From a virus (taxonomy: Duplodnaviria > Heunggongvirae > Uroviricota > Caudoviricetes), in IMG/VR virus record IMGVR_UViG_3300027917_004307: a DNA stretch of 64,000 nucleotides, one strand, 5' to 3'. Below the pieces are notes generated by a model. That model was not told the origin of the DNA. It ran no database searches and was given only the letters and a program-made list of their open reading frames with translations. Positions 2,958 through 55,034 of the stretch are shown piece after piece; the first letter of the stretch is position 1; every line of letters begins with the position of its first letter. The translations under genes and the position numbers were made by a program.

Positions 2958-3238
2958 TAATATGTCCGGGTCTTCAGTAATCAAATCAGCAATTATGTCA
3001 ACATATTCGAGCGGAACCATTCTGCCACGTGACGTCATTCTGACTTTTCTGTTCCTACGCGCCTTAAGTGCGCCGCTCAGGGCTTCAATAGAATATAGCC
3101 TGTATAATTCCTTTGCTTTTTCGGATAGACCAACGGGATTGTACATGCCGCGTTTGGCCATCAATGCATAGGTGATTTCTTTGGCTGTGGCATCTCTTAA
3201 ACCCATAGTAATTTATATTTGATCTCAAAAATATTGAA

Positions 3239-38179: not shown

Positions 38180-38458
38180 TCATCTCTCCTCATCTATCGG
38201 CTCCGCCATCTTCGACACCAATTCAGGAAATTGTTCGGCTATATCTTCTAAGATTTCGAAAGGATCCAAGCCGGGGCCGGTCGTACCATAAAATCCGCCT
38301 GGGGTACTAGCACTCCAAGCATAGTAGTTGCTGCTATCGTATCTGCGAACCTCCAGAGCGCCGCCATTGATTCGAATATGCCAAGCCATATAGCCTTTAC
38401 GGAAAGGATAGTAGTCTTCGCAGATGCGATCCAAGACTTCGGTTGCCTCGTCATCCAT
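38180..38458 (-). CDS. paralog family 2 small protein
   Basis: 'AWHIRINGGALEV' and C-terminal 'EQFPELVSKMAEPIDEER'. Lies directly upstream of family-1 gene 37755-38060. Confidence 0.45.
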   Translation of the reverse strand: MDDEATEVLDRICEDYYPFRKGYMAWHIRINGGALEVRRYDSSNYYAWSASTPGGFYGTTGPGLDPFEILEDIAEQFPELVSKMAEPIDEER

Positions 38459-38975
38459 TTAAATAGCAAGTCCTGCAAAGGGTCGTGTACTTATCCTTCC
38501 CCCCGACCTCGACATCACCTTCTTTGTTGCCCGCCTTGAAGTAAGAAAATGTGCCCATTTCTGACCCGCATTTAGTGCAGATCGCCGTCAGCATGTCGAT
38601 GGAATCGCACAGAGGGATGAGGCTTTGGATAGGTGCGAAGGGTGTTCTTTCTGAGGTCCCGTTCAGCCCACACGCAATCACGGTGCATTTCTGAGCCAGG
38701 TGATCGACCTCTGCTGCAAATTGTGGATAGTCGAAGAATTGTGCCTCATCTACCCCGATCACATCGCCTTTCGAGTGCTCAATTTCAAAAATGCCATTCA
38801 CGAAATGAATCGGGAATAGAAATGCCTTGTTGTCGTGCGTCAGATGGCCTCTAGTATCCGTCTTGGGGCGCAGCAACACCACCCTCTTGCCAGCGATACT
38901 AGCCCTCTCAAGCCGCCTGATAAGCTCCGAAGTCTTGCCAGAGAACATTGGGCCTAAAATCAATTGAAGCGTCAC
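38451..38975 (-). CDS. tdk: thymidine kinase
   Basis: P-loop 'GPMFSGKTSELI'. C-terminal zinc ribbon CTKCGSE...CRTCY. GTG start. Confidence 0.85.
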   Translation of the reverse strand: MTLQLILGPMFSGKTSELIRRLERASIAGKRVVLLRPKTDTRGHLTHDNKAFLFPIHFVNGIFEIEHSKGDVIGVDEAQFFDYPQFAAEVDHLAQKCTVIACGLNGTSERTPFAPIQSLIPLCDSIDMLTAICTKCGSEMGTFSYFKAGNKEGDVEVGGKDKYTTLCRTCYLNG

Positions 38976-40059: not shown

Positions 40060-40089
40060 AAAAAAAGAGCCCCGATTTCTCGGGGCTCT
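40060..40089 (-). terminator. rho-independent terminator downstream of the major capsid gene
   Basis: On the minus strand, agagccccgag-aaat-ctcggggctct followed by tttttttg, 27 nt after the capsid stop. Confidence 0.7.
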
Positions 40090-40115: not shown

Positions 40116-41666
40116 TTACAAGTTGCTCACTGTGACTACGCCGTAGTAGAGCCCACCATCTTCGATGAGCTTTTTTCCATACCGGGTCATTATGCCCTTG
40201 TTCGGCGTGAAGGAGTTGGGGTCCAACACGGTCGGCGTCGAGAGCAGCGGGATGTACGGCGCGTAGAAGTACCCGGAGTCCAGCACCGAGTTACCCTTGA
40301 AGCCCATCAGGATCTTGCAATTCGGGAAGAGCGGATCCTTGTAAAGTTTCAGCTTCCCTTGAATCGTACCGGCGCTCGTAATCCCGATGTCGATCCCATC
40401 TTGCGCCAGTGCGTCCGATCCACGGAAGTCATTGAGCTGCTCGAACTTCGAGGCAATGTCAGCGCTCGTCACCATCCAGTTGGCCGGTCCCCGTAGGGTG
40501 GTCCTGTGGATGATGTTGGCAACTTCCAGCACCTTGTAGAGCAGCGCGATGTTGCGGTCTGTGAAATTCACCGCAGCACCGGCACCCGTCGCGAAGTTGT
40601 GGTTGGCGCGAATGGCGGCGGCGATGATCAGATCGTTAATGATTTCCCTGTCGATCTCGGCCACCATCTCATCGGCCATAAGGTCCGTGAGGGTGCTCTC
40701 TGCGTCGATGTTGTGCACCGACTTGAGGTCCTGGGCGGCTTCGAGACTCCAGGAGGTCTTGAGCTTGCGGGTGACAGCGGCCACCGAGTCGCTGTCGATG
40801 CTCATCGAGACCTCAGGCTGGAACGGGTTGTTTTCCAGGTCGTACTCGTAATTGACCCTGGCTACTGCTCCTGCGGGGAGCGTGCCACTGGCCAGAGTGA
40901 CCGAGACAGAGCCATCATCGTGATTGAACTCCGTCGCACCGGAGGTGGACTCGTCAATCGTGATGTCGGAAGTGTCACCCACGAGCACAACATCCGGAGC
41001 GCCATCCGAGTCAAACCCGACCTGAAGGATGGGCGTCGGAGTTTCGCAGTCGTCGGCGATGGAGTCTGCTGTAAAGACGTTGACCACCACCGTACCGGCG
41101 AGAACGGGCTTGTGAACCAGGTTCCCCTGGATGGCAGCGCCACCCTGCACGATCGCGAGATCCTCATCCTGGACAATCTGCGAGGTGTAGTAGGGATCCA
41201 AGGCCCAGCCGTTCTGGCGGGCAAACTGCTGGGCAGTATTCTGCCTCATGATCTGTGTACCAGCAATCGTCTGGCCCTTGGAGATGGCGTAACGGTACCT
41301 GATGTAGAAAATCAGGCTGGCTGGCTGACTCATTGGCTGAACACCGACGAGGTTATCAGCGATGAGCCTGGGATAGCTCTTGCGGATGAGCGGCAGGGCA
41401 AAACGGGTGAAGTCAGCGATATCGCCCGTGGTCGTAGCATCCTCAAGCAGGACATTCCTTTTCTTGGGATCCCAGCTGTTCAGCTGGTTTTCCATAATAG
41501 CTGCCATGAGACCATACTTTTTAGGCGTGATCTCAGGGCACTTCTTGAGGACTGGAGACCACTTGGCCACCATCGCATTCTTCTTTGACTCACGAGCGAG
41601 GATTACATCCCGCTCCTCAGTCAAGGTAGCGCCCTTGCCGCTACCCTTTTTCGTCATATGGGGCAT
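40116..41666 (-). CDS. major capsid protein, T4 gp23-like
   Basis: 'WSPVLKKCPEITPKKYGLMAAIMENQ' aligns with T4 gp23 'WKPLLEGEGLPEIANSKQAIIAKIFENQ'. 'RLIADNLVGVQPMSQPASLIFYIRYRY' aligns with 'NLIAFDICGVQPMNSPTGQVFALRAVY'. The C-terminal 'YFYAPYIPL...NSFTP..GIMTRYG' aligns with 'IYYAPYVAL...KNFQPVMGFKTRYG'. Confidence 0.85.
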   Translation of the reverse strand: MPHMTKKGSGKGATLTEERDVILARESKKNAMVAKWSPVLKKCPEITPKKYGLMAAIMENQLNSWDPKKRNVLLEDATTTGDIADFTRFALPLIRKSYPRLIADNLVGVQPMSQPASLIFYIRYRYAISKGQTIAGTQIMRQNTAQQFARQNGWALDPYYTSQIVQDEDLAIVQGGAAIQGNLVHKPVLAGTVVVNVFTADSIADDCETPTPILQVGFDSDGAPDVVLVGDTSDITIDESTSGATEFNHDDGSVSVTLASGTLPAGAVARVNYEYDLENNPFQPEVSMSIDSDSVAAVTRKLKTSWSLEAAQDLKSVHNIDAESTLTDLMADEMVAEIDREIINDLIIAAAIRANHNFATGAGAAVNFTDRNIALLYKVLEVANIIHRTTLRGPANWMVTSADIASKFEQLNDFRGSDALAQDGIDIGITSAGTIQGKLKLYKDPLFPNCKILMGFKGNSVLDSGYFYAPYIPLLSTPTVLDPNSFTPNKGIMTRYGKKLIEDGGLYYGVVTVSNL

Positions 41667-41695: not shown

Positions 41696-42532
41696 TTATT
41701 CGGGCATCTCACTAGCAATCTTGTCAATGTCGGATGACCCGCTTCTCCTAGCAACCCCTGCCGGGATCTCAGATTCAACCAGAGGCCTGCGGGTCGTCTT
41801 GGCCTTGGCCGGGACCTTGCGAGACTTATCAAGGCGTTCGGAGAGGGTCTTCTTGCCCTTCTTGTCTTCCGTCAGGGCTTTACCCTTCTTCTTGCCTTCA
41901 CAGGTGCATGGGGACTTCCCACAATCTTTACAACCATCGGCGCATGACTTGCAGGTGGTTCCCTCGCCCATGATGGGCGCACCACACTCGCACTTGGCGG
42001 CTCCGCCCTTCTCTTCGAGCAGACCATTCTCCTTCAAGGTACTCTCCATGAGCTGGTTCTTCTTGAGGACCTTGACGGCGATAGCGTTTGCACGATTGGC
42101 GGAATTTACTGCACGCTGCCTCTCTTCTCTGAGTTGCGTAGCGAGTTTTTCGAGGCGCTCTGACTTCTTCTCCAGGGCACGAATCTCCCGACTAGGCACA
42201 CCGCCTTCAATCTCGATATCCTCAAGAATAGCTTTGGCCTTCTTGAGGCGGGCGGTTGCTTCGGTCTCTTCTGCTACCCTCTGCTTAGTCATCGCCTGCT
42301 CGATCGACTTCACCTTGCTCTCAAGGAATACAGCCACTTTGCGTGCAAGGTTGACCTTTTCTTTAGCCACTTCTTCGATACAGATCTTTTTAGCCTTCTC
42401 GACCTTCTCCTGCAGTCGTCTCTCATACTGCTCCTTGAGGTCGTTAGAATAGTGCTCAAGATGCTCACATAGCTGGTTCGCGAGCTCTTTGGAGGCACCA
42501 ATGTTTTCCAACAACGCCAATATCTTATCCAT
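41696..42532 (-). CDS. prohead scaffold protein (gp22-like) with C-terminal Cys cluster
   Basis: Almost entirely coiled coil and charged. Immediately upstream of the capsid gene. Unusual C-terminal CKSCADGCKDCGKSPCTCEGKKKGK. Confidence 0.55.
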   Translation of the reverse strand: MDKILALLENIGASKELANQLCEHLEHYSNDLKEQYERRLQEKVEKAKKICIEEVAKEKVNLARKVAVFLESKVKSIEQAMTKQRVAEETEATARLKKAKAILEDIEIEGGVPSREIRALEKKSERLEKLATQLREERQRAVNSANRANAIAVKVLKKNQLMESTLKENGLLEEKGGAAKCECGAPIMGEGTTCKSCADGCKDCGKSPCTCEGKKKGKALTEDKKGKKTLSERLDKSRKVPAKAKTTRRPLVESEIPAGVARRSGSSDIDKIASEMPE

Positions 42533-42588: not shown

Positions 42589-42822
42589 TCATCCTACAGT
42601 TGTCCAGTCACCATCTGGTGGCAGCATTTGATTTAAATTGGCTCCACCGCTCCACGATGCTCCACACATTTTACATGTGAGATGAAAACCAGCATATATC
42701 GGAGACAAACCAGCGCCATGTGCTTTCGCTGATGTTATGAAACCATCGATGTCATCGTGTGGACATTCTTGCGTATCTCCCAAACCATCATCTAGCATTT
42801 TGGCGATTTCTTCTGGATCCAC
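42589..42822 (-). CDS. small Cys/His protein in head module
   Basis: 77 aa with 'CPHDDIDGF...CKMCGASW'. Confidence 0.35.
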   Translation of the reverse strand: MDPEEIAKMLDDGLGDTQECPHDDIDGFITSAKAHGAGLSPIYAGFHLTCKMCGASWSGGANLNQMLPPDGDWTTVG

Positions 42823-43337
42823 TAGTATTTCCTCTGCTCTTCTGGGGGCTCGTACAAGTATTTGCTGATGTCTTCTGGTTCCTCTTCCTCCGCATCATAC
42901 GGCGCAGCACCCATTGGAACATATGCTTGGTGCATAGCTTGCATCGTTTCAGATGGGATTGGTTCACCTATCAATTCACCAACCCTTTGGATCGCCGTCA
43001 AAATCTCCCCGATGTAACGAACTTCCGCAATTCCCATATGATCATCAAGATATCCCTGCGCTAAACCAATTAGCGTGTTCATCACTTCTCTGTTGGATAA
43101 GGGCGTACCAACATCTTCGCTAGCTAGCGTCTCAGCAGCACCCTTAACCGCGCCAACAGCAGCCGATCCAGCAGTCTCAAGCGCTTTAGCAGCACCCTTG
43201 GCAGCCATCTTCGCGACACCTGGACCTTTCTTCTTGACAAGTTCAATGCCAGCTTTACCCCAGTCCTTAAGCTTGCCCTCGTCAAAAAGATCTGGGTCCT
43301 CATCTATGAATTTTGCGATTTCTTCTGGAGTCAGCAT
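42822..43337 (-). CDS. Ala/Gly-rich acidic protein (candidate prohead core/internal protein)
   Basis: 171 aa with 'GVAKMAAKGAAKALETAGSAAVGAVKGAAETL' and an acidic C-terminus. Sits in a gp67/gp68-like position. Confidence 0.4.
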   Translation of the reverse strand: MLTPEEIAKFIDEDPDLFDEGKLKDWGKAGIELVKKKGPGVAKMAAKGAAKALETAGSAAVGAVKGAAETLASEDVGTPLSNREVMNTLIGLAQGYLDDHMGIAEVRYIGEILTAIQRVGELIGEPIPSETMQAMHQAYVPMGAAPYDAEEEEPEDISKYLYEPPEEQRKY

Positions 43338-45301
43338 TAATCGTTGATGGAATTGCCCATCACCTCAGCGATAGTATCCTCGGTAATCGTGTCGTCATCA
43401 ATTAGCTTCGCCAGATTGTTGCGAATGATCGTCTTAGATTCTACAACTTCGTCTGTCTCTTCCTCGCCCTCTTCCTCGCCCTCTTCCTCGCCCTCTTCCT
43501 CGCCCTCTTCCTCGCCCTCTTCCTCGCCCTCTTCTTCGCCCTCAGGAGGACCTTCAACAGGAGGACCTTCTTCACCTTCTTCGCCCTCAGGGTCTGGCGA
43601 AAGACCCATTTCTGGTTCCATGCCTTCAGGTTCGCCCTCAACCTGCTCCTCGTAAGCAAGGGCTTGGTTGATCATGATCATAGCATCATCATCCGCATTG
43701 TTCTTGATGATATTTAGGAATTTGGCCAGTTCCGCAGCGGTGATAACGCCATCATCCATCATCTCATCCGCTTCCATCTCAGGAAGGGAGTCAGCTGCAT
43801 CGGCAATATCATCGATCGGAGGTTCCTCTGCCGGTGGCATTTCACCTGGGCCTTCGTCGGTAATTTCAGCAGGAGGCCCAACTCCCTCATCACCAAACGG
43901 CATCGGCTGTTCATTGAGAGGAGCAAGCAACTCCATCTTCATGGCTTCTTCGAAATTCTCAAGCCCAAGACGCCTCTTCCAGTCATCTTCTGAAAGGACT
44001 CTACCGCCAGACACCACCTCGCACATCCTATGAAGGCGACGTGAAACCCTGCCCCTAGCGGACTCTTTGATCAACTCTAATTTCTTCATCAATTTGTTCT
44101 CCATTGAGGTTACCATACCCTTATTCTCTACGTCTTCTATTGCAGTTTCTTTGTTGTTCGGGCACCCATCTGTATCGCATGCCTTATCCGGACCGCATGT
44201 GCCACCACAGATCTTGCATTTATGTCCATCTGGACCTTGCTCGGTCATTGGCATGTCATCCGCAATGACACCACCAGCAATACCACCAGCCCCAACAGCA
44301 TCCTCAACCGGAATGCCGCATGCGCCACAATGTTCATTTATGGCCGAAGACATATGCTGGACTTCTTCATCGATGCGTGTTGAAAGATCCTTCATCGCCT
44401 TTAGCACATCAAGAATCTTCTCTTCCTTCTCTTCTTCGGTGTCACCTCTGAATAAGTCATCAAAAGTCTCTTCATCAACACCTTCAAGAGCATCGTCCAG
44501 TTCAGTTTCGGATCCACCACCAATTTCATGGTGCCTCTGCCTCAGGCGGGCCAAAAGGGGGCTCTCTTCCCTGACGATTTCACCATCGGTACCAAACACA
44601 TAACTTTCAGAAGTTAGTTTGCTACCAAGCTTGAGTATCTGAATAATTCTATCTACTGATTCTGGCATATTCTTTAAAATGTACTCCGCTATTTCATACG
44701 GGTCCCATGATTCTGGACGATCTACTTCAGTTTTCTTACCTGCCATTTCCCCAGCTTCTTGTTCGCGTTCAAATCTGCCAATCTTTTCTTTGTCTATTGA
44801 GGCATAAATGTCTTCTAAGCCTGCTTCTTTCATCACCGTAGCAACGTCGCCTGAAGACATATGTGCACTAAGAATGTTGGCTAGCTCTATTGTCTCACTC
44901 TCAATTAAATCCTTGATACTCTTATTGCCTTCCTTCTTGCGCTTCTCTTCGCGTTCTTTCTCCCTCTTCTTGGCAAATTCTTTGGCTTGTGCTCTTGCAG
45001 AAAGTTTAGAATGTGGGTCTATATAATATCCACCCAACCCACTTTCTGACTTTTTGTACACCCGCCCAGGTTTATACGTTATATCCTTCTTCTTTATTAA
45101 TTCCTGCCCAGGAGTAGGTTTTTCTTCCTCTTCCTTGACTTCGGGGAGCCCCTCGTGCTTAGTTGAAGCGAAATCTTTCGCGGCCCTTTTTGACATGCCT
45201 TTTGCAGCCTTAGCTACGGCAGGAGATGCCGGTTCTTCACCCTTTTTGGCGGCGTAGACCATTCCCATGAACCGCTGCTGCTTCTTTGATTTAGCGGGCA
45301 T
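43337..45301 (-). CDS. large acidic low-complexity protein with (GEEE)n tract and Cys clusters (candidate internal head / ejected protein)
   Basis: 654 aa. The C-terminal (EEGEEEG)n is encoded by 12-bp repeats. Cys clusters at CGACGIP...HKCKICGGTCGPDKACDTDGCPNNKE. Lies between the prohead protease and scaffold genes. Confidence 0.45.
   Translation of the reverse strand: MPAKSKKQQRFMGMVYAAKKGEEPASPAVAKAAKGMSKRAAKDFASTKHEGLPEVKEEEEKPTPGQELIKKKDITYKPGRVYKKSESGLGGYYIDPHSKLSARAQAKEFAKKREKEREEKRKKEGNKSIKDLIESETIELANILSAHMSSGDVATVMKEAGLEDIYASIDKEKIGRFEREQEAGEMAGKKTEVDRPESWDPYEIAEYILKNMPESVDRIIQILKLGSKLTSESYVFGTDGEIVREESPLLARLRQRHHEIGGGSETELDDALEGVDEETFDDLFRGDTEEEKEEKILDVLKAMKDLSTRIDEEVQHMSSAINEHCGACGIPVEDAVGAGGIAGGVIADDMPMTEQGPDGHKCKICGGTCGPDKACDTDGCPNNKETAIEDVENKGMVTSMENKLMKKLELIKESARGRVSRRLHRMCEVVSGGRVLSEDDWKRRLGLENFEEAMKMELLAPLNEQPMPFGDEGVGPPAEITDEGPGEMPPAEEPPIDDIADAADSLPEMEADEMMDDGVITAAELAKFLNIIKNNADDDAMIMINQALAYEEQVEGEPEGMEPEMGLSPDPEGEEGEEGPPVEGPPEGEEEGEEEGEEEGEEEGEEEGEEEGEEETDEVVESKTIIRNNLAKLIDDDTITEDTIAEVMGNSIND
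43457..43540. repeat. tandem 12-bp repeat (ctcttcctcgcc)n, about 7 copies, encoding (GEEE)n
   Basis: Read directly from the sequence. A coding low-complexity repeat, not a CRISPR array. Confidence 0.9.
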
Positions 45302-46016
45302 TCAGTTTCTCGGCAAGCATTCTTGAGAACTGTTCGGCAATTAGATGCTCAGCTTCTTCCCTGATTTTCTTTGGGGCATTCCTCTTGATTTCCTTGAGCG
45401 TCCTTTCACGACTCTCTTTGATGCTCAAATAAGAACCATGCACGCTAGGCTCAGCAACAATATCAAAAGTGACAAACGTAAAACCAGGCATCACTTTATA
45501 ATATTCGTTACCCTCATGGATTGTCGTCTCCATATCACCAACGCCGCGTGATGAAATGCCAAGCTGCACATTGCTCTCGATGAGTGCCTTGGCAATAGCA
45601 CCCATCGGGGTTTTCTCGATAACATGCAGCTCACCAAATACGGCATCCCCCTTCATTTGAAGTTGGGTTAGAAGGTGGGATACCCTATCAAGATGAATTT
45701 TAGCGTCGGGCGGATGATCGCATTCTCCCATCACCCGCCTGGCTTTGATGTCTTCCTGGATCTCGTTTACAGCGCTTTCCAGGATTTCCCCAGGATAAAT
45801 TCTACCATTAGCATTGGGCCTATCTGCAAATTGGAATTGGCCACCAAGCTTCAAAATGCTCCCGATGCCCTTGATGTCTTCTGTAATCGGCCTAGAAGAC
45901 AATATTAAAGGCATTGAATCTTGAAACAATTGATGGCACCCAATATTGCCAGTAATAGAGGCGGTGTGTCTGCTAACACAACCACCCTCACAATGCTTGC
46001 ATTTGAACTTCGGCAT
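45291..46016 (-). CDS. prohead core protease, T4 gp21-like (U9 family)
   Basis: 'MGECDHP' (His) and 'GISSRGVG' (Ser) match the conserved catalytic blocks of gp21. Position is between the portal-side genes and the scaffold. N-terminal CKHCEGGC. Confidence 0.7.
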   Translation of the reverse strand: MPKFKCKHCEGGCVSRHTASITGNIGCHQLFQDSMPLILSSRPITEDIKGIGSILKLGGQFQFADRPNANGRIYPGEILESAVNEIQEDIKARRVMGECDHPPDAKIHLDRVSHLLTQLQMKGDAVFGELHVIEKTPMGAIAKALIESNVQLGISSRGVGDMETTIHEGNEYYKVMPGFTFVTFDIVAEPSVHGSYLSIKESRERTLKEIKRNAPKKIREEAEHLIAEQFSRMLAEKLNAR

Positions 46017-46018
46017 AA

Positions 46019-49000
46019 TTATATCGCTGGCTTCTCTTCTTCCTCACCTGCTTCTTCGCCCTCTTCGCCCTCTTCCTCACCACCGAGGATATCTTCGATT
46101 TCCTCTTCGCCACCTTCCTCACCCCCTTCTGGCAGCTCTGGGGCTTCTTCTTCGCCAGCCTCTCCTAAGTCTGGAATGTTAGCTTCAGGAGGACCCTCTG
46201 GCGCACCACCCATTATTTCCGCGCCACCGCCGGACCCAAGATCTAATGATTTGACAACAGAATCAATTACATTGTCGATCGAATCATCAGATGCAACAAT
46301 TACCGCCACGTCTTCAGAGAGGTCTTCATCGTCCTTCTTTTCCCTCTCATTGATGGAGGACTTTTTGTAGCCGATGGGCTTGATGCCCTTAGACGACTTC
46401 TTGTACTGTGCTTCTCCAAGCCCAGGCCCGGCCATCTCAGGATCTCTCACCCCAGGCTCAATCTCGGCGGCGTCTTCAAGGAATCCAGGGCAGTCAGGAT
46501 TGGGGCAAGGTTCGCCAGGTTCGCCAGTGGTCCTTTCCATACAGTCGTAGCAGATGCACTCAGTGCCTTTGTCCATCCCGAATTCTCTGAACCTGGCGGT
46601 CATCGGCCTGCGATGGTATGGTCCGTAAATCCACTCAGGATCTTCAAGCTCGCTGAGGACATTCAGTGCTGCTTCGTCAGATCTCAATGCTTCCTTCAGC
46701 GATTTAACAGCAGCCCCAACGGAATCCTTCTTGCCTTCCACCAATGCTGCGAATTGCTCCATGAGTTCACTATTTTCGCCAATGGCCTTGTGGATCGTGG
46801 CAAGCCATTCCTTCACGTCTTCAGCCTTTTCCCAAGGCTTACCGCTATCACCGGGCTTGTCGTCATCACTCCCATCACCCTCATCGCCCTCATCGCCCTC
46901 ACTTTTCTTGCCAAACTTGTGCTTCTCAAGGGCCGGTGGTAACTTGCCTTCGGCAACACCGCCCTTGCTCTTGGCGCTAACTTTTTCTGTCTTGCTCCCC
47001 TGGTCACCTGACTTAAGTTCAGCTGAAAGGGTGTCGTCAAGTTTATCAACCCAGCCGCCGCCTTTGTATTGCTTGCCGGTCCCAGGCTGTACCTTCTCTG
47101 GGTTGCCAGCACTCTCGGCAACGCCTTTGCCCTCCGGACGATCCATCATAGCAGACCCGGTGCTTGGCTTTCCAGCATCAGGGTCGTCTTCATTATCGGC
47201 GGGAAGACCATCGTCGGATAGACCCTTCTTTTGCACGCCCTTGCCGCCTTGGTTGTCCATTTTCTGGCCGGATCCGCTTGAATAATCGGCATCACCAACG
47301 CTCTTGTTTGCAATACCCTTGCCCTTTGGGCTACCCATCTTTGGGTCACCAGAGGCTGCCTTGCCCTTGCCAGCGGAACCTGGTTCGCTGCCACTCTTAG
47401 CTGCCACACCCTTACCCTTGGGACTATCCATTTTGGCCCCGTATTCTTCATTGATTTCAGTCTCGCTGCCGACATCAATGCTATCGTATGGATCCTCGAA
47501 GAGTGCATCATCATCTACAACGACGTCATCACCGGTTTCCACCATGACGTCGCGTAAGCTCTCGAATTGCTCTTTGAGATCCTTCGCATCAAGTGTATCG
47601 CAACGCTTGATGTACTCTGCCATCTTGGCACTGTACTTGTTAAAGCCATCATCTTCGGCGAGGAAAATGTGCCCATCAGTCTTCCATTTGTCAAGTTCAG
47701 CGCTGAGTTGATCGACGGTCATTTCCTCGATGACGACTTCCTTATCCTTCTGTTCAGACTCGGGAAGCGGCGGCAATCCTTCCTCCCCTTCCTCCTCCTC
47801 GCCTCCCATCGGTAGCTCTACCACTGGGCCAGCAGGCTCCTCTTCCTGAATCGGCTCGTCACCAGGAATCTCGCTGTAAGTCTCAAGCGTCACAATACGA
47901 TCAATCAGGGTGTCAGGAATGCTGCATAGAAGCTGTTCGGCTTCCATGATGATGTCGGTTGCAGGTTCTGGCTCTTCAAGCTCAGCAATCATCGACTCAA
48001 CCTGGTTGGCCAAGTCTTCCTTTCCTTCCATCTTGGTCAAAATAGAATTGATGACCTTGAGCGTGGTGAGATATGCTTTGGCGCGAGCGGCCTGAACACT
48101 GACGCTCTCATTGAAGAGCTTACCGAGAAACGAATCATAATCCTTTGAGAAGCTCTCAGAAGACTCAAGCAGCTTCACATTGTGAAGCATCTCTGAATTT
48201 TCTGCCTTGATCGCCGTCTTCTCCCAGGCTTCACAGATTGATTGGTGGTTAACCTTTAGGTTCGTGCGATAGAATAACATCGCAACATCTTCGGCCAGAA
48301 GCGAATTAAATTCACACTTCGTTGCCAATGCTTGTTCAACCAGATTCTTGATCCCATCAGCATCTAACAAACAGAATTCCTGCTCCTCGCTAAGGAATTT
48401 GGCCGCCACTTTGACGGCTTCCTTGATCTCACCGGATGATACCATTCCGGCAATATTCCTAATCATACTGCTAAATTTATCCGATTTCCAAGCACTCTCC
48501 GCCACCGACTTCATATGCTTGGCGACGAGACGACGCCTTGTCATTTCATTCACAGGAATGTTGAACTTCTCACCAGTTTCAGGGAATTCAGCCTTGATCA
48601 CCCTGCCATTGTCATCCACTTCGACAAATTCAGAAATTGCCGAGCAGAATGCTTCCGTAATGGCTGGAATGTCATACTTCTCGCCTTCCATATCCACAGG
48701 GACGTGGTGGGCGAGCTGATCCTTAGTCGTTACCCAACCACTCTCAGGTATTACAGACGGACGGAACCTGCCGTTCTCTATGATCCTATAAATATGTTCC
48801 GCTTCTTTGAAATCATCCGCTGCCAGACTCTCTACCAGACTGATGCAATGCTGGTCGAAAGACTCAGACTTCTGCTCGTCTACGATCTTAATCGGCTGTA
48901 TATTGCTAATTTCTACCTTGCCATGCGGTTTCTTTGCAATCTTAGCATGGTGGTAGGAATTGGCTTCAACATCCTCGAAGATCATTGAGTTGGCTTCGAG

Positions 49001-49162
49001 AGCAACAAGCCGGAAATTCTTTCCAGCCTCTTCCCCGAGCTTATTCACAATTCCTTCGAAGAATACTACCTTAGATTGAGCCGACGTGTTGATCGCACGC
49101 AGAAACTTCCTGGCATCCATAGTCAGCGGAGCCGGAGACGTGTTCTGATCTGTGCTGGGCAT
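46019..49162 (-). CDS. giant acidic low-complexity protein (1047 aa) with PKGKG repeats, Cys cluster and poly-Glu tail
   Basis: Repeats KMDSPKGKGVAAK / KMGSPKGKGIANK / KMDNQGGKGVQKK / MMDRPEGKGVAES. Cys cluster CICYDCMERTTGEPGEPCPNPDCPG. C-terminal GEEGGEEEIEDILGGEEEGEEGEEAGEEEEK. Sits between the portal and prohead protease, where gp67/gp68 lie in T4. Confidence 0.45.
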   Translation of the reverse strand: MPSTDQNTSPAPLTMDARKFLRAINTSAQSKVVFFEGIVNKLGEEAGKNFRLVALEANSMIFEDVEANSYHHAKIAKKPHGKVEISNIQPIKIVDEQKSESFDQHCISLVESLAADDFKEAEHIYRIIENGRFRPSVIPESGWVTTKDQLAHHVPVDMEGEKYDIPAITEAFCSAISEFVEVDDNGRVIKAEFPETGEKFNIPVNEMTRRRLVAKHMKSVAESAWKSDKFSSMIRNIAGMVSSGEIKEAVKVAAKFLSEEQEFCLLDADGIKNLVEQALATKCEFNSLLAEDVAMLFYRTNLKVNHQSICEAWEKTAIKAENSEMLHNVKLLESSESFSKDYDSFLGKLFNESVSVQAARAKAYLTTLKVINSILTKMEGKEDLANQVESMIAELEEPEPATDIIMEAEQLLCSIPDTLIDRIVTLETYSEIPGDEPIQEEEPAGPVVELPMGGEEEEGEEGLPPLPESEQKDKEVVIEEMTVDQLSAELDKWKTDGHIFLAEDDGFNKYSAKMAEYIKRCDTLDAKDLKEQFESLRDVMVETGDDVVVDDDALFEDPYDSIDVGSETEINEEYGAKMDSPKGKGVAAKSGSEPGSAGKGKAASGDPKMGSPKGKGIANKSVGDADYSSGSGQKMDNQGGKGVQKKGLSDDGLPADNEDDPDAGKPSTGSAMMDRPEGKGVAESAGNPEKVQPGTGKQYKGGGWVDKLDDTLSAELKSGDQGSKTEKVSAKSKGGVAEGKLPPALEKHKFGKKSEGDEGDEGDGSDDDKPGDSGKPWEKAEDVKEWLATIHKAIGENSELMEQFAALVEGKKDSVGAAVKSLKEALRSDEAALNVLSELEDPEWIYGPYHRRPMTARFREFGMDKGTECICYDCMERTTGEPGEPCPNPDCPGFLEDAAEIEPGVRDPEMAGPGLGEAQYKKSSKGIKPIGYKKSSINEREKKDDEDLSEDVAVIVASDDSIDNVIDSVVKSLDLGSGGGAEIMGGAPEGPPEANIPDLGEAGEEEAPELPEGGEEGGEEEIEDILGGEEEGEEGEEAGEEEEKPAI

Positions 49163-49232: not shown

Positions 49233-51047
49233 TTATCCTGTGAGGTTATCTTCCTCGTCGCCTGAGTGTATTGATTCTAGCAATATTTTCATTTCCTTCT
49301 TAGCTGATTTTCGATCTATAGGATCGATGACGCTATCGACCAATAATGCATCGTCCTTACCCTTCAACCCATCCAATTCATTATTGTTAAGCAAGAATTC
49401 AAAGCTTGATGAATATCTCGTTGGTACGGTAGGAACTTTGTTCTCGCTTTCCTCAATCATCTCCATGAGTGTTTTCTCTGTCTTGGCATCATAACTTTCT
49501 AGAGCGCCACCCATCATTTCTCCACCTTCTCCACCTCCACCACCTCCACCACCTTCTCCACCTTCTCCACCTCCACCACCTTCTCCGCCAAGAAGACCAC
49601 CACCGAGACCGCCACCGAGACCACCACCGAGACCACCGCCTTTACCACCTTCGCCACCCATTTCAAGTCCTTCTTCCATGGCTTTCTTTTTTTCTTCTTG
49701 CATTTGTCTAATTTCGTCTTCAGTCATATCTGTGAATCTCTTCAAGATCCACTCATCAGGAAATAATTCAGTACCCTTTAAAGCATCAATTACGTCTGCC
49801 CTGGAAGCCCAGGTCTCAATCCTATACAACTCGTCAATTGCAGAACTAGCAGTCATGTGCAACGAGAAGTTCTTGAGGTCCTTTTCTGAATAGCCCCTCA
49901 AAGCAAGATGGACGATAGCTGCCTTTTTGAGACCCATAGCTGCTTCACGTTGTACCCATTGCACAGCTTTGGCAAACTCGGGTGACACTTGCGATAACGA
50001 CTTGGTTTCGTTCTCTCCAGATTCGCCAATCCCAACTCTGCTGTACGGAATCTTGAGTCCAGAGATCATTTTCTTCTTGAAGTACTCAATATCTGCTATT
50101 TGATCGAGGTTTTCAGCGCCTGGTAGAGTCTCAACTTTAGGGCCGGTGCCGTCTGATCTCATGGGCAGCCAGAAATCATCTTCTTGTATAAGTGGATTCC
50201 ATCGCTCATTCACATCGCCAGTTGCTGGATCAAAGAATCTCCTTTTCTTGAATGTGTTCGCTATCTTCTCCATGTAACCAGGAATTTCATGAGTCGGAAT
50301 TTGGCCGACAGGAATTGTGAAAACGCGCTTCTCGGGCGCACGGGTCAAACGATAGATAATTGCCGCATCTTCCATCAAGCGAAGCTGCTTGAAGTGTTTC
50401 CTCGCGCCGTTTAACAGTGATCGGCCATATGGATGAAATAAATTCTCATATGAAGTAAGCCTCATATGCATCACTTGCCACGGGTGTAAGAATTCTGGAC
50501 TCCTAACCAATTCATCTTGGTAAAAGAATCCTACAAGATCACCGAATTTAGTCTCAACCCTAGTAAAATTATAAATATTCATGAATCTGATACTTGCAAC
50601 ACCATCCCTATTCTTAGTCGGAATTATCTCAGCAGGGAAATCACCATACTTGACCAAGTACCTGATCATTGGACGCAGGGTATTGTCGATCAATAGAGTA
50701 TCATAAAATAGCTCTTCAAGTTCATTCTTGACTGCTTTGGTCTTGGCCTTTACCATTATTGAGTGTTTTGACTCACTGTCAATTAATGAAGCTTCATCTG
50801 AATATAAATCCAACGCGAGAGACATCTCGCCGACTTCATCCATCTGGTCGTAGTCTTTATACCTCTCTAAGCGATTAATATGAAGATTTGTTTGTTCTAG
50901 AAGTGCATGTTGCGAAGATAGATTTATGAAATCGCCTGAAGCAATTAATTTGTCAATCGACGATTGGTCAGTGAACAGATTGTCGCCACGATAAACATTG
51001 CTTTGCTTGAAATAAGCGGCGATTCTGTCAAATAATTGCCAGCTCAT
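49233..51047 (-). CDS. portal protein, T4 gp20-like, with C-terminal Gly-rich insertion
   Basis: 'AIIYRLTRAPEKRVFTIPVG' aligns with T4 gp20 '[21 protein letters not shown]'. 604 aa versus 524 in T4, the extra length being a (GGE/GGL)n tract. Confidence 0.8.
   Translation of the reverse strand: MSWQLFDRIAAYFKQSNVYRGDNLFTDQSSIDKLIASGDFINLSSQHALLEQTNLHINRLERYKDYDQMDEVGEMSLALDLYSDEASLIDSESKHSIMVKAKTKAVKNELEELFYDTLLIDNTLRPMIRYLVKYGDFPAEIIPTKNRDGVASIRFMNIYNFTRVETKFGDLVGFFYQDELVRSPEFLHPWQVMHMRLTSYENLFHPYGRSLLNGARKHFKQLRLMEDAAIIYRLTRAPEKRVFTIPVGQIPTHEIPGYMEKIANTFKKRRFFDPATGDVNERWNPLIQEDDFWLPMRSDGTGPKVETLPGAENLDQIADIEYFKKKMISGLKIPYSRVGIGESGENETKSLSQVSPEFAKAVQWVQREAAMGLKKAAIVHLALRGYSEKDLKNFSLHMTASSAIDELYRIETWASRADVIDALKGTELFPDEWILKRFTDMTEDEIRQMQEEKKKAMEEGLEMGGEGGKGGGLGGGLGGGLGGGLLGGEGGGGGEGGEGGGGGGGGEGGEMMGGALESYDAKTEKTLMEMIEESENKVPTVPTRYSSSFEFLLNNNELDGLKGKDDALLVDSVIDPIDRKSAKKEMKILLESIHSGDEEDNLTG
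49515..49660. repeat. Gly-codon low-complexity tract (ccacc/tcc repeats) encoding the GGEGGKGGGLGGGLGGG... insertion in the portal
   Basis: Read directly from the sequence. Confidence 0.85.
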
Positions 51048-51116: not shown

Positions 51117-53420
51117 TCATTTAGGTCTCTTAGGAATAGTCAAGTTGTGCTTTTTTGGCCTTACAATCCTAATGTTATTTTTGGTTTTGCCTAGGGTAAT
51201 TCCACCAATTTGTTGCTGAAATTTTCTAATTTCATCCTCAGCCTTTATTTTGCCACTATCCACTTCGCTACTAACATTAAATGGCAACATTATATTTTTA
51301 CTAGCTATAGAATTCAGATCGAATTTGCTAGTCGGATCAGATAATGGAACGTCGAAATTATGATACGGTAATAAATTATGTCCACCTATCCTAACTGCAT
51401 CGCCAACACCAATCAGCGACAATGCTGTAGCGATGACCAAGTCGTCATTGTTACCTGGACCTGGCTCAGCACCAGTCTTGGTCTCGGTCAATTGGACATA
51501 GATCATCGCTTCTTTATATAGTCTCGAAGAGCATACGACATAACCATCTTCACCTAGTCCGTCTATTAAGCATTTATCCAGTAGAGGCTTACTTTGGCCG
51601 GTAGTTGAGAATCCAAGATGCCCGGCTTTAACTTTCAGATCTGCTCTCTTCCTTCTACTCCTATATATGTTCGGGTATGCTAAATCTTCGAATAATTCTT
51701 GGCAGGTGGCTTTGCCGATGCCAGTATTTTCAACTACTGCCAGTGCATTATTATACCACCTGCCAATAAAGTCTATCATCTTCGCAAAGACTTTGGGCCT
51801 GACTTTAATCTTCAGTTCTGCTACTTGTTCGCCCTCATTGATATCAAAAACTTCGATGGCACTGAAATCCTGCCCTTCGCCAGTGGCTACGTCACAACCA
51901 AGCACATACTGGTGCGGCGGTTCACCGGTCTCTTCGTTCCCCTTGTTTGGCTTCTTCCAGACCCACAATTCATCCCTAAAATCAAGGACTTCCCTCTCCT
52001 CAGTCGTAGGATTGACATAATCCTGTAAACCAACCGTCTTATAATTTTTCCCATGAATCGCAACTGTATTCCCAATTATTGATAATGTCTGTCTCGATAA
52101 GACCGTATGGCCAGTACCGACGAATTCAGCAAGAACCTCTTGTCTGAATTTAGAGTCATCACCTTTTTCAGTAAGGTTTCTGTATTCAGTGTCAAGCCAC
52201 GGACTCCAATACGGCCCGAATTTTTCTATCTCATCTGGCGTTTTGCATTCACGAAGACCAGCAGTGGGACATATAGATATCGTATTGCCAGAGAACTCAT
52301 CCTTAAATGGAATCTTCCATGTCATATCCCACCAATTGATCACTATCGGATTGAAGTCATTTTGGTTTGATTCAGCGTCAGTCCAGAATCTCCAATACCA
52401 ATTACCAACACCCTTAACAGTTGAAATAACAATGGCGCGACCACCATGCTGGAGTGTAGGCCAGCCACCACTCCACATATCATCCATATGAGGCATAAAC
52501 GCCGCTTCATCGATGATATTTAACGACGACGCATTCGAGCGCAGAGTATCGGGGCTAGATGTTAAGCTGGTAATCGTAGAGCCGTTAGGAAATCCTATTT
52601 TGTGTTCGTTGCTCATGCCACCAGCTGCTGGATCTATCGACCAAATTTGCTGCATCCACGACGGCAAGTGCCCAAACGCCAACTTAACATTCTTTTTTAA
52701 AAAATCCTTGGCGTCCTTGTCTCGTTTTGACACGATCAGTACAGTTTTGTGACCAAAAAACATCGCATACCAAAGAGCAAAGGCACCGGATAACGTAGAA
52801 ATACCGCAATTATGAACAACAGCTCCATCAACAATGTAGTTATTGTATGGTGGGACTCTTAAATCATAAACTTGGCATTCCAAATTTGTTGGTTTTACTG
52901 ACTTTATTTCAGATTCGGCTATTTCCATACGATCGTTGATTTCGATTATCCTATCGCCTTGGTTTAATGATCCAATATTACGCCATCCACCAGGCGTCTT
53001 AAATTCATGATTGCTGGTAAAAAATGATTTGTGCCCGTTTTTGCTATTAACCTCAACTAAGTCGTCAGAAATCCCATTGTTGTACACATCCTCAACAACA
53101 CTAACGACAACACCATCATTGCTTAGCGAATAAACTTGATCGCCATTTTTTATTGAATCTATCCTTATTGGCCCGCTTGGTGTCCATACTTGAGAGTCAT
53201 CACGTGCGCATTGCCTGCATTTTCTATAAATGTTGAACCGTTTTGTCATGAAGTCTCTGATACTATCGATTTGATAGTCGAATAGGTTAAATGGGATGAT
53301 TCCTGCCCGTGGGTGTTGGATCTTACAGAAAGTTTTTATAAAGAATACCGGGCTTCTCTGGCATTTACGTATTAGTTTTTTTAATTGCTTTGGGTTAACC
53401 ATCGTCATCCATACCGTCAT
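51117..53420 (-). CDS. terminase large subunit (gp17-like) interrupted by a mini-intein in the ATPase P-loop
   Basis: After the intein is removed, 'RKCRQ|CGISTLSGAFALWYAMFFGHKTVLIVSK' aligns with T4 gp17 '[32 protein letters not shown]'. Extein length is about 633 aa. It directly precedes the portal gene. Confidence 0.85.
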   Translation of the reverse strand: MTVWMTMVNPKQLKKLIRKCQRSPVFFIKTFCKIQHPRAGIIPFNLFDYQIDSIRDFMTKRFNIYRKCRQCARDDSQVWTPSGPIRIDSIKNGDQVYSLSNDGVVVSVVEDVYNNGISDDLVEVNSKNGHKSFFTSNHEFKTPGGWRNIGSLNQGDRIIEINDRMEIAESEIKSVKPTNLECQVYDLRVPPYNNYIVDGAVVHNCGISTLSGAFALWYAMFFGHKTVLIVSKRDKDAKDFLKKNVKLAFGHLPSWMQQIWSIDPAAGGMSNEHKIGFPNGSTITSLTSSPDTLRSNASSLNIIDEAAFMPHMDDMWSGGWPTLQHGGRAIVISTVKGVGNWYWRFWTDAESNQNDFNPIVINWWDMTWKIPFKDEFSGNTISICPTAGLRECKTPDEIEKFGPYWSPWLDTEYRNLTEKGDDSKFRQEVLAEFVGTGHTVLSRQTLSIIGNTVAIHGKNYKTVGLQDYVNPTTEEREVLDFRDELWVWKKPNKGNEETGEPPHQYVLGCDVATGEGQDFSAIEVFDINEGEQVAELKIKVRPKVFAKMIDFIGRWYNNALAVVENTGIGKATCQELFEDLAYPNIYRSRRKRADLKVKAGHLGFSTTGQSKPLLDKCLIDGLGEDGYVVCSSRLYKEAMIYVQLTETKTGAEPGPGNNDDLVIATALSLIGVGDAVRIGGHNLLPYHNFDVPLSDPTSKFDLNSIASKNIMLPFNVSSEVDSGKIKAEDEIRKFQQQIGGITLGKTKNNIRIVRPKKHNLTIPKRPK
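52810..53211 (-). mobile_element. mini-intein (Hint domain only, 134 aa) within the large terminase
   Basis: Begins at Cys 'CARDDSQVWTPSGPIRIDSI' (block A). Block B is 'KSFFTSNHEF'. Ends '...QVYDLRVPPYNNYIVDGAVVHN' followed by a +1 Cys. No endonuclease domain. Confidence 0.8.
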
Positions 53421-53955
53421 CGTCCCCGAGAAGTTTAGACAGATCGATATTTGTCACATTTTCCTGCACGATCTGCGTTCCTTTGACGGCAGAAATCATT
53501 CGGCTCATCGAGTCCAGTAGTTTAATAATAGTAGCGTTAGTCTCTGCCTTTGTCCTGTGCGCTGATACTAAGCCTTCGACTATAAACTCCCTAGGTGTCT
53601 TAGAATCAATAAAAATATCTCTGATCCTTTGGATTGTATCTTCTATCGCTTCTCTATCATTATGGTAGTTATTTAATATTGTTTCAGCAATATTATTAAA
53701 TTTCTCATAGACTGCCCTAATATCAACGGCACCGTCCGCTTGCCCCACACCATCAATTACCTCAGCTATAGCTTCCTGGTGCTTTGCTGGTGGTTCTATG
53801 TCATGGTCAGGATCAGGATCAGGATCTATCACTGATTCAGGCTCCTTCTCCGCTTGCTCGAACGGATCTTTAGCCTTATCCAGCAATTCCATAAGCTCTT
53901 CGTCGTTTATCGGCTGATCTGGCTGATCAGATCCTGCCTTCTCTTCTTCAGGCAT
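53395..53955 (-). CDS. putative terminase small subunit (gp16-like), acidic
   Basis: 186 aa immediately upstream of TerL. Loose similarity of 'FIVEGLVSAHRTKAETNATIIKLLDSM' to T4 gp16 '[25 protein letters not shown]'. Confidence 0.4.
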   Translation of the reverse strand: MPEEEKAGSDQPDQPINDEELMELLDKAKDPFEQAEKEPESVIDPDPDPDHDIEPPAKHQEAIAEVIDGVGQADGAVDIRAVYEKFNNIAETILNNYHNDREAIEDTIQRIRDIFIDSKTPREFIVEGLVSAHRTKAETNATIIKLLDSMSRMISAVKGTQIVQENVTNIDLSKLLGDDDGMDDDG

Positions 53956-55034
53956 TCTAAATATTCCGGAATACTAATCGTACTTTCTGACAGAACCGCG
54001 TTTATTCTCTCAGACACTAGTTTGACTGTTGGTGCTATGCTACCCAATTCACTTCTACCAAGCATCGTCTCCAAAATTCTGCTACTTGCATCTAACTGTT
54101 CGTATGACAGGATGTTCAAATCAGTGTCTGGGTCTTGGATGAGAGATACTATTAAATCGGCCCCCTCTTTTATTTTGTCTTCCCTCATGCGATCGGCTTT
54201 TCTCTTTTCATTCGGCCTGTCAGCTTTACGCTCCTTATACCTCTGGTCTTCGTTCGACTTATCCCTCTTTGGCGTAACTTTTGTAGGGTCTGGCATCCTC
54301 ATTGGGACTCTACGTCCTTTGTCCTGATTCTTAGATTTAAGTGATTTCCTAGTTTTCAAAGCGACTTGGTTATCGTGAGATAGAGGGGCAATCCCACGCC
54401 CCTCAACGGTGGTGCTGTCGGTTGTTTTAACAGTATCGATACCATCCTGCTCGACTTCGGCTGGTTCTATCCTAAGTGACCTCAATATCGTATCATCATA
54501 TTCTGCTGTAACATTGAAGACTGATCCACGATACTTGACTGGGGCTATAATGGCTTGATCGGCCAGTTCGTTTTCCAATCCCTCGATAACAGAAGCGTCA
54601 ACGATGGCAATCTTACCAGTTGGAGCAGTAAATTCTTCCTCAAAGTTCTCAGGTTCTTCAGCTATTTCCTCGTCTTCTTTGAGCGGCCACATTGGCTCAT
54701 CATTAGATGCTTCTGGCAGGCCAAATTTGTTGTCGATTAGGGCAGCAGCACGCTTGTGGCATATCGGCACATTTACCTTAATTGTACCAACAGCTTTGTC
54801 GTCATTGATTTTGTCAATGACGACACCACCATCGAGACTGTATCTAAACCACAATTGAGACCCATCTCCAACCCTAACCACCACGAGTGCCTGGCCATGT
54901 GCGTCGGTTTTACTGCTGATTCTGCCGACATCTATTCCATATGCTTTTTTGAGCTGTTTTCTAACACTCTTAGCATATTTTCTCAATGAAACCATTTTGT
55001 CTTCAGTTTCAGCCATCGTATTCGTCCTCTTCAT
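53907..55034 (-). CDS. hypothetical basic/acidic protein
   Basis: 375 aa with a K/R/D/E-rich C-terminal half. Confidence 0.4.
   Translation of the reverse strand: MKRTNTMAETEDKMVSLRKYAKSVRKQLKKAYGIDVGRISSKTDAHGQALVVVRVGDGSQLWFRYSLDGGVVIDKINDDKAVGTIKVNVPICHKRAAALIDNKFGLPEASNDEPMWPLKEDEEIAEEPENFEEEFTAPTGKIAIVDASVIEGLENELADQAIIAPVKYRGSVFNVTAEYDDTILRSLRIEPAEVEQDGIDTVKTTDSTTVEGRGIAPLSHDNQVALKTRKSLKSKNQDKGRRVPMRMPDPTKVTPKRDKSNEDQRYKERKADRPNEKRKADRMREDKIKEGADLIVSLIQDPDTDLNILSYEQLDASSRILETMLGRSELGSIAPTVKLVSERINAVLSESTISIPEYLECLKKRRQDLISQISR

Follow-up and report, generated by a model that had tools for sequence, protein, structure and literature searches.

In the T4 record, the head genes are given in the order 20-67-68-21-22-23. 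In this phage, cleavage after L/I-x-E precedes the exit of the core proteins from the head (PMC9026906, PMC5694885), and a capsid-targeting sequence (CTS) of 10 residues is common to the non-conserved internal proteins of this phage (PMC9026906). In phiKZ, 201phi2-1, and SPN3US, phages with very large capsids, the inner-body proteins are many and large, are encoded near an S77-related protease, and are processed by it (PMC5694885). Here, we describe the head-gene block of an uncultivated huge phage in a stretch of 64,000 nucleotides (IMG/VR record IMGVR_UViG_3300027917_004307; hereafter the window), the public European Nucleotide Archive (ENA) version of which is contig k141_869270 of ERZ27279932 (261,688 bp). 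On the minus strand, this block includes an open reading frame (ORF) of 1047 amino acids between the portal and protease genes (g1047, 46019-49162) and one of 654 amino acids directly after the protease gene (g654, 43337-45301). Our analyses modestly favor the reading that g1047 is a clade-wide prohead-core protein and that g654 and its two small neighbors, g171 and g77, are accessory head-internal proteins occupying a cargo slot and associated with a CTS-like leader peptide. Core and internal proteins of the T4-type prohead are known in kind; the g1047 family, its universal polyanionic half, and the leader are undescribed.

The gene order on the minus strand is TerL, portal, g1047, S77 protease, g654, g171, g77, scaffold-like protein, and gp23-type capsid protein, the families of the flanking genes having been identified by Pfam and PHROGs scans. 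The TerL gene (51117-53420, 767 amino acids) is followed by a portal gene of the T4 gp20 type (49233-51047, 604 amino acids; Portal_T4, E 1.9e-73), and g1047 by a prohead protease gene of the S77/T4 gp21 type (45291-46016, 241 amino acids; Peptidase_S77, E 5e-21; PHROG 207, 3e-48). Downstream of g654 lie g171 (42822-43337), encoding an acidic protein of 171 amino acids, and g77 (42589-42822), encoding 77 amino acids with three cysteines, both without a family match, and then a gene for a 278-residue helical protein with a basic C-terminal part (41696-42532) and the major capsid gene of the T4 gp23 type (40116-41666, 516 amino acids; Gp23, E 3.5e-79). The 278-residue protein has no Pfam or PHROG match; the place of its gene, which directly precedes the capsid gene in every locus, and its composition mark it as the probable scaffold. 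The first-pass annotation had placed both large proteins in the head-morphogenesis block and g1047 at the position of T4 gp67/gp68, and the ORFs, their Pfam and PHROGs neighbors, and the T4 gene order agree with this; it had also put g654 between protease and scaffold, which is correct, but had omitted g171 and g77, which sit there as well. The protease start codon directly adjoins the g1047 stop codon, the g654 start overlaps the protease gene by 11 nucleotides, and g654/g171 and g171/g77 overlap by 1 nucleotide each. The only strong terminator-like hairpin on the minus strand (40066-40089; 10 pairs, 7 of them G-C, then a T-run) lies directly 3' of the capsid gene and likely marks the end of the head operon. 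Because the junctions are adjacent or overlapping and this sole strong terminator follows the capsid gene, the head block looks like one late operon in which g1047 and g654 are apparently co-transcribed.

A database search for g1047 returned about 60 homologues of ~720-1290 amino acids, mostly ~1000, none of them annotated, and a phmmer search with amino acids 1-430 against 1.84 billion cluster representatives returned 157 proteins (50%-identity clusters) at E<=1e-3, 130 of them at E<=1e-30, with the domain at the N-terminus of the full-length matches. A capsid-protein query was used to collect related IMG/VR loci (capsid identity 73-87%, contigs up to 408 kb), more than 40 of which span the portal-protease interval; all of these have a g1047 homologue there. 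Conservation is concentrated in amino acids 1-570 (13 invariant residues), where identity ranges from 31 to 66%, compared with 44-72% for the protease and 29-60% for the scaffold; the N-terminal region thus diverges more slowly than an arms-race cargo would be expected to, and to an extent comparable to that of protease and scaffold. Across 146 full-length members, the median length is 1025 amino acids and the median net charge -88 (range -161 to -37), split between a nearly neutral first 430 residues (-9) and a remainder of -83. The C-terminal half is variable in sequence and constant in character, being always polyanionic, with ends that are polyacidic in 25 members, cysteine-rich in 24, and basic in 40. 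By sequence comparison, g1047 is a clade-wide, vertically conserved head-module gene and not a local oddity, and what the first-pass annotation took for an unusual local expansion in the gp67/gp68 slot is the normal conserved state of the whole clade. One homologue (P0024) comes from an NCBI contig of 120 kb that carries the label 'MAG: Candidatus Nitrosocaldus sp.'; either this is phage sequence that was binned wrongly, or some members may infect archaea.

The protein is built from a folded N-terminal region and a long acidic remainder. Amino acids 1-430 (47873-49162) are predicted to form an alpha/beta part (amino acids 13-200) and a helical part (206-429), followed within amino acids 431-545 (47528-47872) by a disordered acidic linker and a conserved three-helix module (483-543). 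An AlphaFold2 model of amino acids 1-570 based on 59 sequences has a mean predicted local distance difference test (pLDDT) score of 83, with values mostly above 90 in the helical part, 36-42 in the linker (about amino acids 429-478), and 71-95 in the three-helix module. A low-complexity region rich in Gly, Lys, Asp, and Glu (amino acids 571-780; 46823-47452), variable among homologues, includes four M-D-x-P-K-G-K-G-V repeats (M-[DG]-x-x-[KEG]-G-K-G between amino acids 577 and 685); then come a zinc-ribbon-like cysteine cluster (CxCxxC-x11-CxxxxC, amino acids 869-891; 46490-46558) and a poly-Glu/Gly tail (amino acids ~985-1047; 46022-46210) with a net charge of -23 over the last 47 residues, so that the PKGKG-type repeats and poly-Glu tail noted at first pass are both present in the ORF. 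As had also been noted, both large proteins are giant, acidic, and of low complexity: g1047 has 21.5% Asp + Glu and a net charge of -107, and g654 has 24.8% and -81; no other of the 42 minus-strand ORFs tabulated for the window has as negative a net charge.

No known family accounts for this architecture. g1047 found no match in Pfam or PHROGs scans or in a tblastn search of 50,697 phage records, and Foldseek searches with the model gave best E values of 0.41 against PDB and 0.085 against BFVD, the latter for a MuF-like protein at a TM-score of 0.09. A sequence-profile search of PDB returned a single match, judged to be due to chance. The family therefore appears new, having no Pfam or PHROGs entry and an N-terminal model that matched nothing in PDB or BFVD. 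In the annotated collection, the nearest phage is the 595-kb uncultured phage LR756511.1 (40% capsid identity), in which a 616-residue ORF occupies the same position as g1047, directly upstream of the protease. This ORF aligns colinearly with g1047 amino acids 38-233 in hhalign over 186 columns, although only marginally (E 9e-5, probability 59%), and also ends in a disordered low-complexity region; it differs in being shorter, only mildly acidic (net -15), and itself uncharacterized, and in a tblastn search of the 50,697 phage records, it matched only itself. A distant version of g1047 may thus exist in other huge-phage clades.

The motif after which T4 core proteins are cut is over-represented in g1047. 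[LI]-x-E occurs 33 times versus 16.2 expected (z 4.6), and similar excesses are seen in the scaffold-like protein (14 versus 5.2, z 4.5) and the protease (10 versus 3.6, z 4.0); it is not enriched in the portal or capsid protein, and within g1047, none of the sites falls in amino acids 571-793. The phiKZ-type motif [SAG]-x-E is nowhere enriched (in g1047, 36 versus 36.0 expected, z 0.0). In the capsid protein, V-L-L-E|D at amino acids 72-76 aligns by eye with the L-T-E|A maturation site of T4 gp23.

The protease-scaffold interval behaves quite differently from the portal-protease interval across the clade. Only the closest relatives (L004, L007, L009, and P0061-P0064) have homologues of g654; in most relatives, the scaffold gene directly follows the protease gene with no insert, and in others, the gap holds unrelated genes, some acidic (27-34% Asp + Glu) and some apparently not head-related. 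On this comparison, g654 is a lineage-specific accessory protein in a hypervariable slot. A seven-member alignment divides it into DUF3008, a variable insert, an I-A-x-M-I-S-E-D-P motif, a Cys5 knuckle, a conserved helical block, an acidic linker, a second conserved helix, and an acidic repeat tail, and its AlphaFold2 model has a mean pLDDT of 62, with 231 of 654 residues below 50. The basic N-terminal module (amino acids 1-55; 45137-45301; pLDDT 85-96) matches Pfam DUF3008 at E 2e-4 and 21.8 bits, just below the 24-bit cut-off, with PHROG matches down to 4e-17, in the homologues P0061 and P0063, DUF3008 passes the cut-off, and 17 columns are invariant; the g654 N-terminus, judged by these profile matches, belongs to DUF3008 (PF11450). 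DUF3008 is present in many architectures and has no known function, and a literature search found nothing relevant on it. The N-terminal 47 residues of g654 are 62-75% identical to small cyanomyovirus proteins, and in cyanophage S-SCSM1, a 69-residue DUF3008-only protein, SSCSM1_93, is annotated 'virion protein'; the virion proteome of this phage was obtained by mass spectrometry of CsCl-purified particles (PMC9602691). Unlike these cyanophage proteins, g654 has its module fused to ~600 further residues. Directly behind DUF3008, the g654 homologues have a copy of the leader described below that starts with Met (M-D-I-T-K-I-A-D-M-I-S-E-D-P), which suggests that g654 arose by fusion of a DUF3008 gene with a gene for a leader-bearing knuckle protein; acidic repeats that can expand would complete it.

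The leader itself is shared by many otherwise unrelated proteins encoded in or near the variable slot. g171 begins M-L-T-P-E-E-I-A-K-F-I-D-E-D-P-D-L-F, a CTS-like N-terminus containing I-D-E, and g77 begins M-D-P-E-E-I-A-K-M-L-D-D, the first half of the leader (consensus MDPKDIAKLITEDPD). The consensus, roughly M-N-P-E-E-I-A-K-L-I-T-E-D-P-D, contains a T4-type I-x-E site, and the general pattern across the clade is M-x(4-9)-I-A-x-[LF]-I-T-E-D-P-[DN]. Scanning the plus-strand ORFs of related loci for [IVLM][AVSG]xx[IVLM][STDNI][EDT]DP gave 17 matches versus 0.87 expected from shuffles, 10 of them within the first 16 residues, in carriers that fall into 13 mutually unrelated groups. A scan of IMG/VR with the back-translated core A-x-[LF]-I-T-E-D-P-[DN] gave 68 exact matches in 41 stretches, most of them in frame and at most ~15 codons downstream of an ATG (e.g. 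M-N-P-E-E-I-A-K-L-I-T-E-D-P-D-V), and the proteins headed by the leader form no fewer than 37 cargo clusters unrelated to one another. The position ahead of Ala was left free in the search and is Ile in 35 of 43 distinct sequences, and every degenerate codon position varies in the leader DNA; because synonymous codons vary freely, selection acts on the peptide and not on the DNA. At least 14 of the IMG/VR stretches share capsid, terminase, helicase, or ribonucleotide reductase genes with the window and, because they do, come from the same clade. Tandem arrays of five to seven matches occur at L102 526-5707, L106 2689-7556, L118 4181-9048, and L067 12622-14957, mostly as separate adjacent genes with unrelated bodies, one ORF in L102 having two copies 30 amino acids apart. 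At L104 ~12780-14170 (plus strand), a leader-bearing protein of 462 amino acids has AstE/AspA-M14-like and Peptidase_C39 domains and is a candidate packaged enzyme. Among the loci collected first, a Pfam scan of the proteins with the leader gave no match, and a literature search for the peptide found nothing relevant, so that the motif appears new to description.

We interpret the leader as a possible analogue of the T4 CTS. The CTS of T4 internal proteins (IPs) IPI-III and Alt is likewise a short N-terminal leader, the one described here being about 13-18 residues long and ending in an I-x-E site; both are common to many unrelated, fast-evolving proteins, and the leader genes are often in tandem arrays and near head genes, as are the T4 internal-protein genes. 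The sequences differ, however (M-N-P-E-E-I-A-K-L-I-T-E-D-P-D here versus M-K-T-Y-Q-E-F-I-A-E in T4), the cargos are mostly acidic here versus basic in T4, and unlike the T4 CTS proteins, g1047 lacks a leader altogether, the one in g654 being reduced to a degenerate remnant inside the protein.

Taken together, these observations would fit the following model, in which g1047 is an internal, scaffold-type core protein and the positional counterpart of T4 gp67/gp68. Its N-terminal ~550 residues, roughly charge-neutral, would fold and anchor in a core formed on the portal, and its ~500-residue disordered polyanionic half (family median net -83) would fill and organize a large core, possibly in part by pairing with the basic scaffold tail. 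The S77 protease would then cut g1047 after [LI]-x-E, the acidic fragments leaving as DNA enters, and the leader would dock a cargo protein in the core and be removed after its I-T-E site. T4 gp67 (PIP; PF17634; PHROG 1064), which occupies the same portal-protease slot, has a helical segment of 45 amino acids followed by a poly-Asp/Glu tail, and g1047 likewise has a structured N-terminus followed by an acidic tail, along with the enrichment in the T4 core-protein cleavage motif. Among Tequatrovirus gp67 proteins of 56-87 amino acids (L085 2282-2524, which is T4 gene 67, and P0181-P0300), the first 50 residues are identical and the tail is polymorphic in length, the shortest gp67 being possibly truncated.

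Several observations weigh against this model. gp67 is a small protein (~80 amino acids), and g1047, 13 times longer, with a conserved folded region of ~550 residues that has no counterpart in gp67 or gp68, does not fit that size or architecture. Amino acids 1-440 and 81-200 of g1047 gave no GP67/DUF7216 match even at E<=10, hhalign of the g1047 family profile against T4 gp67 aligned 18 columns (E 0.009, probability 4%), and against gp68 (PHROG 1049), it aligned 17 columns with a probability of 0.6%, with no PHROG match; a homologue search with the T4 gp67 N-terminus returned solely near-identical Tequatrovirus sequences, which gave no usable gp67 profile. No homology was thus detectable to gp67, gp68, MuF, or any PDB or BFVD structure, and for the first-pass idea of an expanded core protein at the gp67/gp68 position, hhalign, Pfam, and Foldseek show no significant sequence or fold similarity. 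[LI]-x-E is not enriched in g654 (11 versus 13.6 expected), so that counting these sites, as had been proposed for both proteins, separates the two. The conserved [LI]-x-E sites of the g1047 family alignment all lie inside predicted helices and so do not allow cleavage sites to be predicted; with this, and with a z of 2.3 for TerL as well, the enrichment is suggestive only and may reflect amphipathic helices. A polyanion as large as g1047 would be unfavorable inside a DNA-filled head unless removed. The leader is entirely missing from g1047 and its homologues, has decayed in the g654 of the window to M-S-S-A-I-N-E ahead of the knuckle region, is internal in a few IMG/VR proteins, and has a C-terminal likeness (...V-D-I-I-A-D-L-I-T-E-D-P-D-I-L-S-I-D) in an 86-residue window ORF at 2946-3206 (minus strand); given such C-terminal and internal occurrences, the motif may serve for docking in general and not be a propeptide. 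For the broader first-pass reading of both proteins as prohead core or internal proteins, the locus, the position, the motif enrichment in g1047, the DUF3008 virion annotation, and the leader on the neighbors speak in favor; the supposed local expansion is not borne out.

Among the alternatives, the one we take most seriously, although we hold it unlikely, is that the head packages g1047, and perhaps g654 too, as an ejection or inner-body protein, kept whole or trimmed at its ends and delivered with the DNA into the host, along the lines of T4 Alt and IPs, the ejection proteins of phiKZ and SPN3US, or P1 Dar, and possibly acting as a polyanionic DNA mimic against restriction or other defenses. 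Large proteins of unusual composition in a head operon would suit such a role, giant phages package many large proteins with long propeptides (PMC5694885), the stretch of g1047 devoid of [LI]-x-E could survive processing, the DUF3008-only protein of S-SCSM1 is annotated as a virion protein, and the adjoining slot is hypervariable, as are the T4 IP loci. However, the N-terminal region of g1047 is conserved clade-wide like that of morphogenetic proteins, the gene is never missing and bears no leader, the Pfam and PHROGs scans detected no enzymatic or anti-defense domain, and with a net charge of about -100, each copy would take up room and counter-ions at the expense of the DNA. Nor does g1047 resemble the phiKZ-like inner-body proteins, to which it has no PHROGs homology and whose [SAG]-x-E motif it does not accumulate, and the phage described here, unlike phiKZ-like phages, orders its head genes as T4 does and clearly includes a gene for a scaffold-like protein. 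Its place immediately downstream of the portal gene, which is where MuF/gp7-type genes lie in Mu and SPP1, brings up another candidate, in which g1047 would be a non-virion assembly factor at the portal vertex (an initiator, chaperone, or head-size determinant, positionally analogous to Mu gpF and SPP1 gp7) with a catalytic or transient role; it would not be a bulk constituent of the core, nor would the protease cut it. Its large conserved folded domain would be in keeping with this, and the top BFVD match was MuF-like, albeit not significant and, at its TM-score, indistinguishable from noise; Phage_Mu_F gave no match even at permissive thresholds, which led us to reject a MuF-like identity. 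Such a factor would also leave unexplained both the universal polyanionic disordered half of ~500 residues and the motif enrichment common to g1047, scaffold, and protease, and we consider it quite improbable.

A different kind of explanation starts from the cysteines and would make metal handling the main role, with knuckle, ribbon, or metallothionein-like modules cross-linking protease, g1047, g654, g77, and scaffold. The compact clusters reported at first pass are present in g1047 (C869, 871, 874, 886, and 891), g654 (C325/328 and C362, 365, 369, 375, and 380), and the scaffold-like protein (eight cysteines within amino acids 181-211), and a further one, missed there, lies at the protease N-terminus (C6, C9, C13, and C27), so that five consecutive head genes of the window have cysteine clusters. 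By contrast, none is seen in the capsid protein or TerL, and the portal lacks cysteine altogether. The g654 knuckle region (CxxC + Cys5, amino acids 325-380; 44162-44329), in which H-K-C-K-I-C-G-G-x-C-G-P-D-K-A-C-D-T-x-x-C-P-N-N is strictly conserved in the seven-homologue alignment, is confidently modelled as beta-hairpins (pLDDT 80-89). Some cluster of at least four cysteines occurs in 78 of the 146 g1047 homologues, 24 of the 146 end in Cys/Lys-rich tails (e.g. C-K-C-G-K-P-N-C-K-C-C-K-D-C-G-N-A-K-C-S-C), and the equivalent cluster of homologue P0043 matches Pfam Zn_Ribbon_TF at 8e-8. The window proteins have spacings that fit a zinc ribbon or knuckle but no Pfam match of their own, and a Pfam scan of the cysteine-rich tails found no metallothionein family and weak zinc-ribbon matches in homologue P0041 only. 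The clusters are, however, sporadic: that of g1047 in the window sits in an insertion with 9-29% column occupancy, found in a minority of homologues, and besides the window, clusters occur in five of 62 scaffolds and three of 50 protease N-termini in related loci. Since their position and form vary in the g1047 family, they cannot be its conserved core function, and we regard metal handling as a very unlikely main role. Least credible, in our view, is that the two ORFs are artefacts of mis-assembly, chimeric joining across repeats, or chance-open non-coding sequence. Low-complexity DNA repeats are indeed present, and the near-perfect (GEEE)7 tandem repeat in g654 (12 bp x 7.2; 43457-43543, minus strand) is (GEEE)3 in ENA contig k141_869270, which gives a g654 of 638 amino acids; the first-pass report of a (GEEE)n protein thus stands as to the presence of the repeat, and its length is polymorphic or assembly-uncertain and should not be taken literally. 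Apart from this copy number, the two versions differ by one mismatch over this region, and AlphaFold2 models are confident for the conserved parts. A fused or mis-assembled ORF is excluded for g1047 by homologues of the same size that align colinearly on many independent contigs from different samples and is unlikely for g654, with its seven relatives sharing several conserved blocks.

The prohead-core reading of g1047 can be taken one step further, although we do so tentatively and think the extended version would more probably prove wrong than right. The clade may have a two-part head-internal system in which g1047, as a universal hub with a new fold and a polyanionic half, builds the core, and the leader loads dozens of different cargos for delivery to the host; the conserved g1047 domain might then be the leader receptor, and the cysteine modules might cross-link the core. 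The cargo may include enzymes as well as g654, g171, and g77.

Other features of the window and its relatives were noted in passing. An ORF of 186 amino acids overlapping the TerL start (53395-53955, minus strand; no family match) is as acidic as g654 (24.7% Asp + Glu, net -28); from its position, it could encode the small subunit of the terminase or some other acidic, head-related protein. The portal has a 65-residue Gly/Glu low-complexity insertion at amino acids ~451-515 (GGGLGGGLGGGL...GGEGGGGGEGGEGG), encoded by 9-27-bp tandem repeats at 49518-49637. Inteins are frequent in the clade: the TerL of the window has a mini-intein at amino acids ~71-207 (Intein_splicing/PT-HINT), a 677-residue ORF (55009-57042, minus strand) has an intein with a LAGLIDADG domain, one relative's portal of 1442 amino acids (L021 509-4834) has two intein/homing-endonuclease insertions, and one relative's TerL of 1001 amino acids (L010 26-3028) has one. 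Some relatives have proteases of 600-650 amino acids; the one tested has its S77 match confined to amino acids 514-595 and shows no detectable intein domain. Genes for a class II (B12-dependent) ribonucleotide reductase of 1110 amino acids (59814-63146) and a ResIII/DEAD helicase (57137-58642) lie upstream of the head block on the minus strand; downstream, the ORF at 38451-38975 (minus strand) reads like a thymidine kinase. An ORF of 844 amino acids (19364-21898, minus strand) matches MVP_shoulder (9e-27), Vault_3 (1e-8), and, weakly, Band_7, a vault-like gene being unusual for a phage. No tRNA genes were found in the window.

It is not yet settled how phages construct and fill very large capsids. 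In T4, the core is made from a small set of proteins, and to our knowledge, no scaffold has been confirmed in phiKZ-like phages. A clade that combines T4-type head genes with an invariably present polyanionic protein of ~1000 amino acids therefore offers a candidate core component specific to large capsids. Should the leader function as the T4 CTS does, the sequence would directly reveal which proteins these uncultivated huge phages package and possibly inject, and the leader itself would serve as a new tag for directing proteins into capsids.

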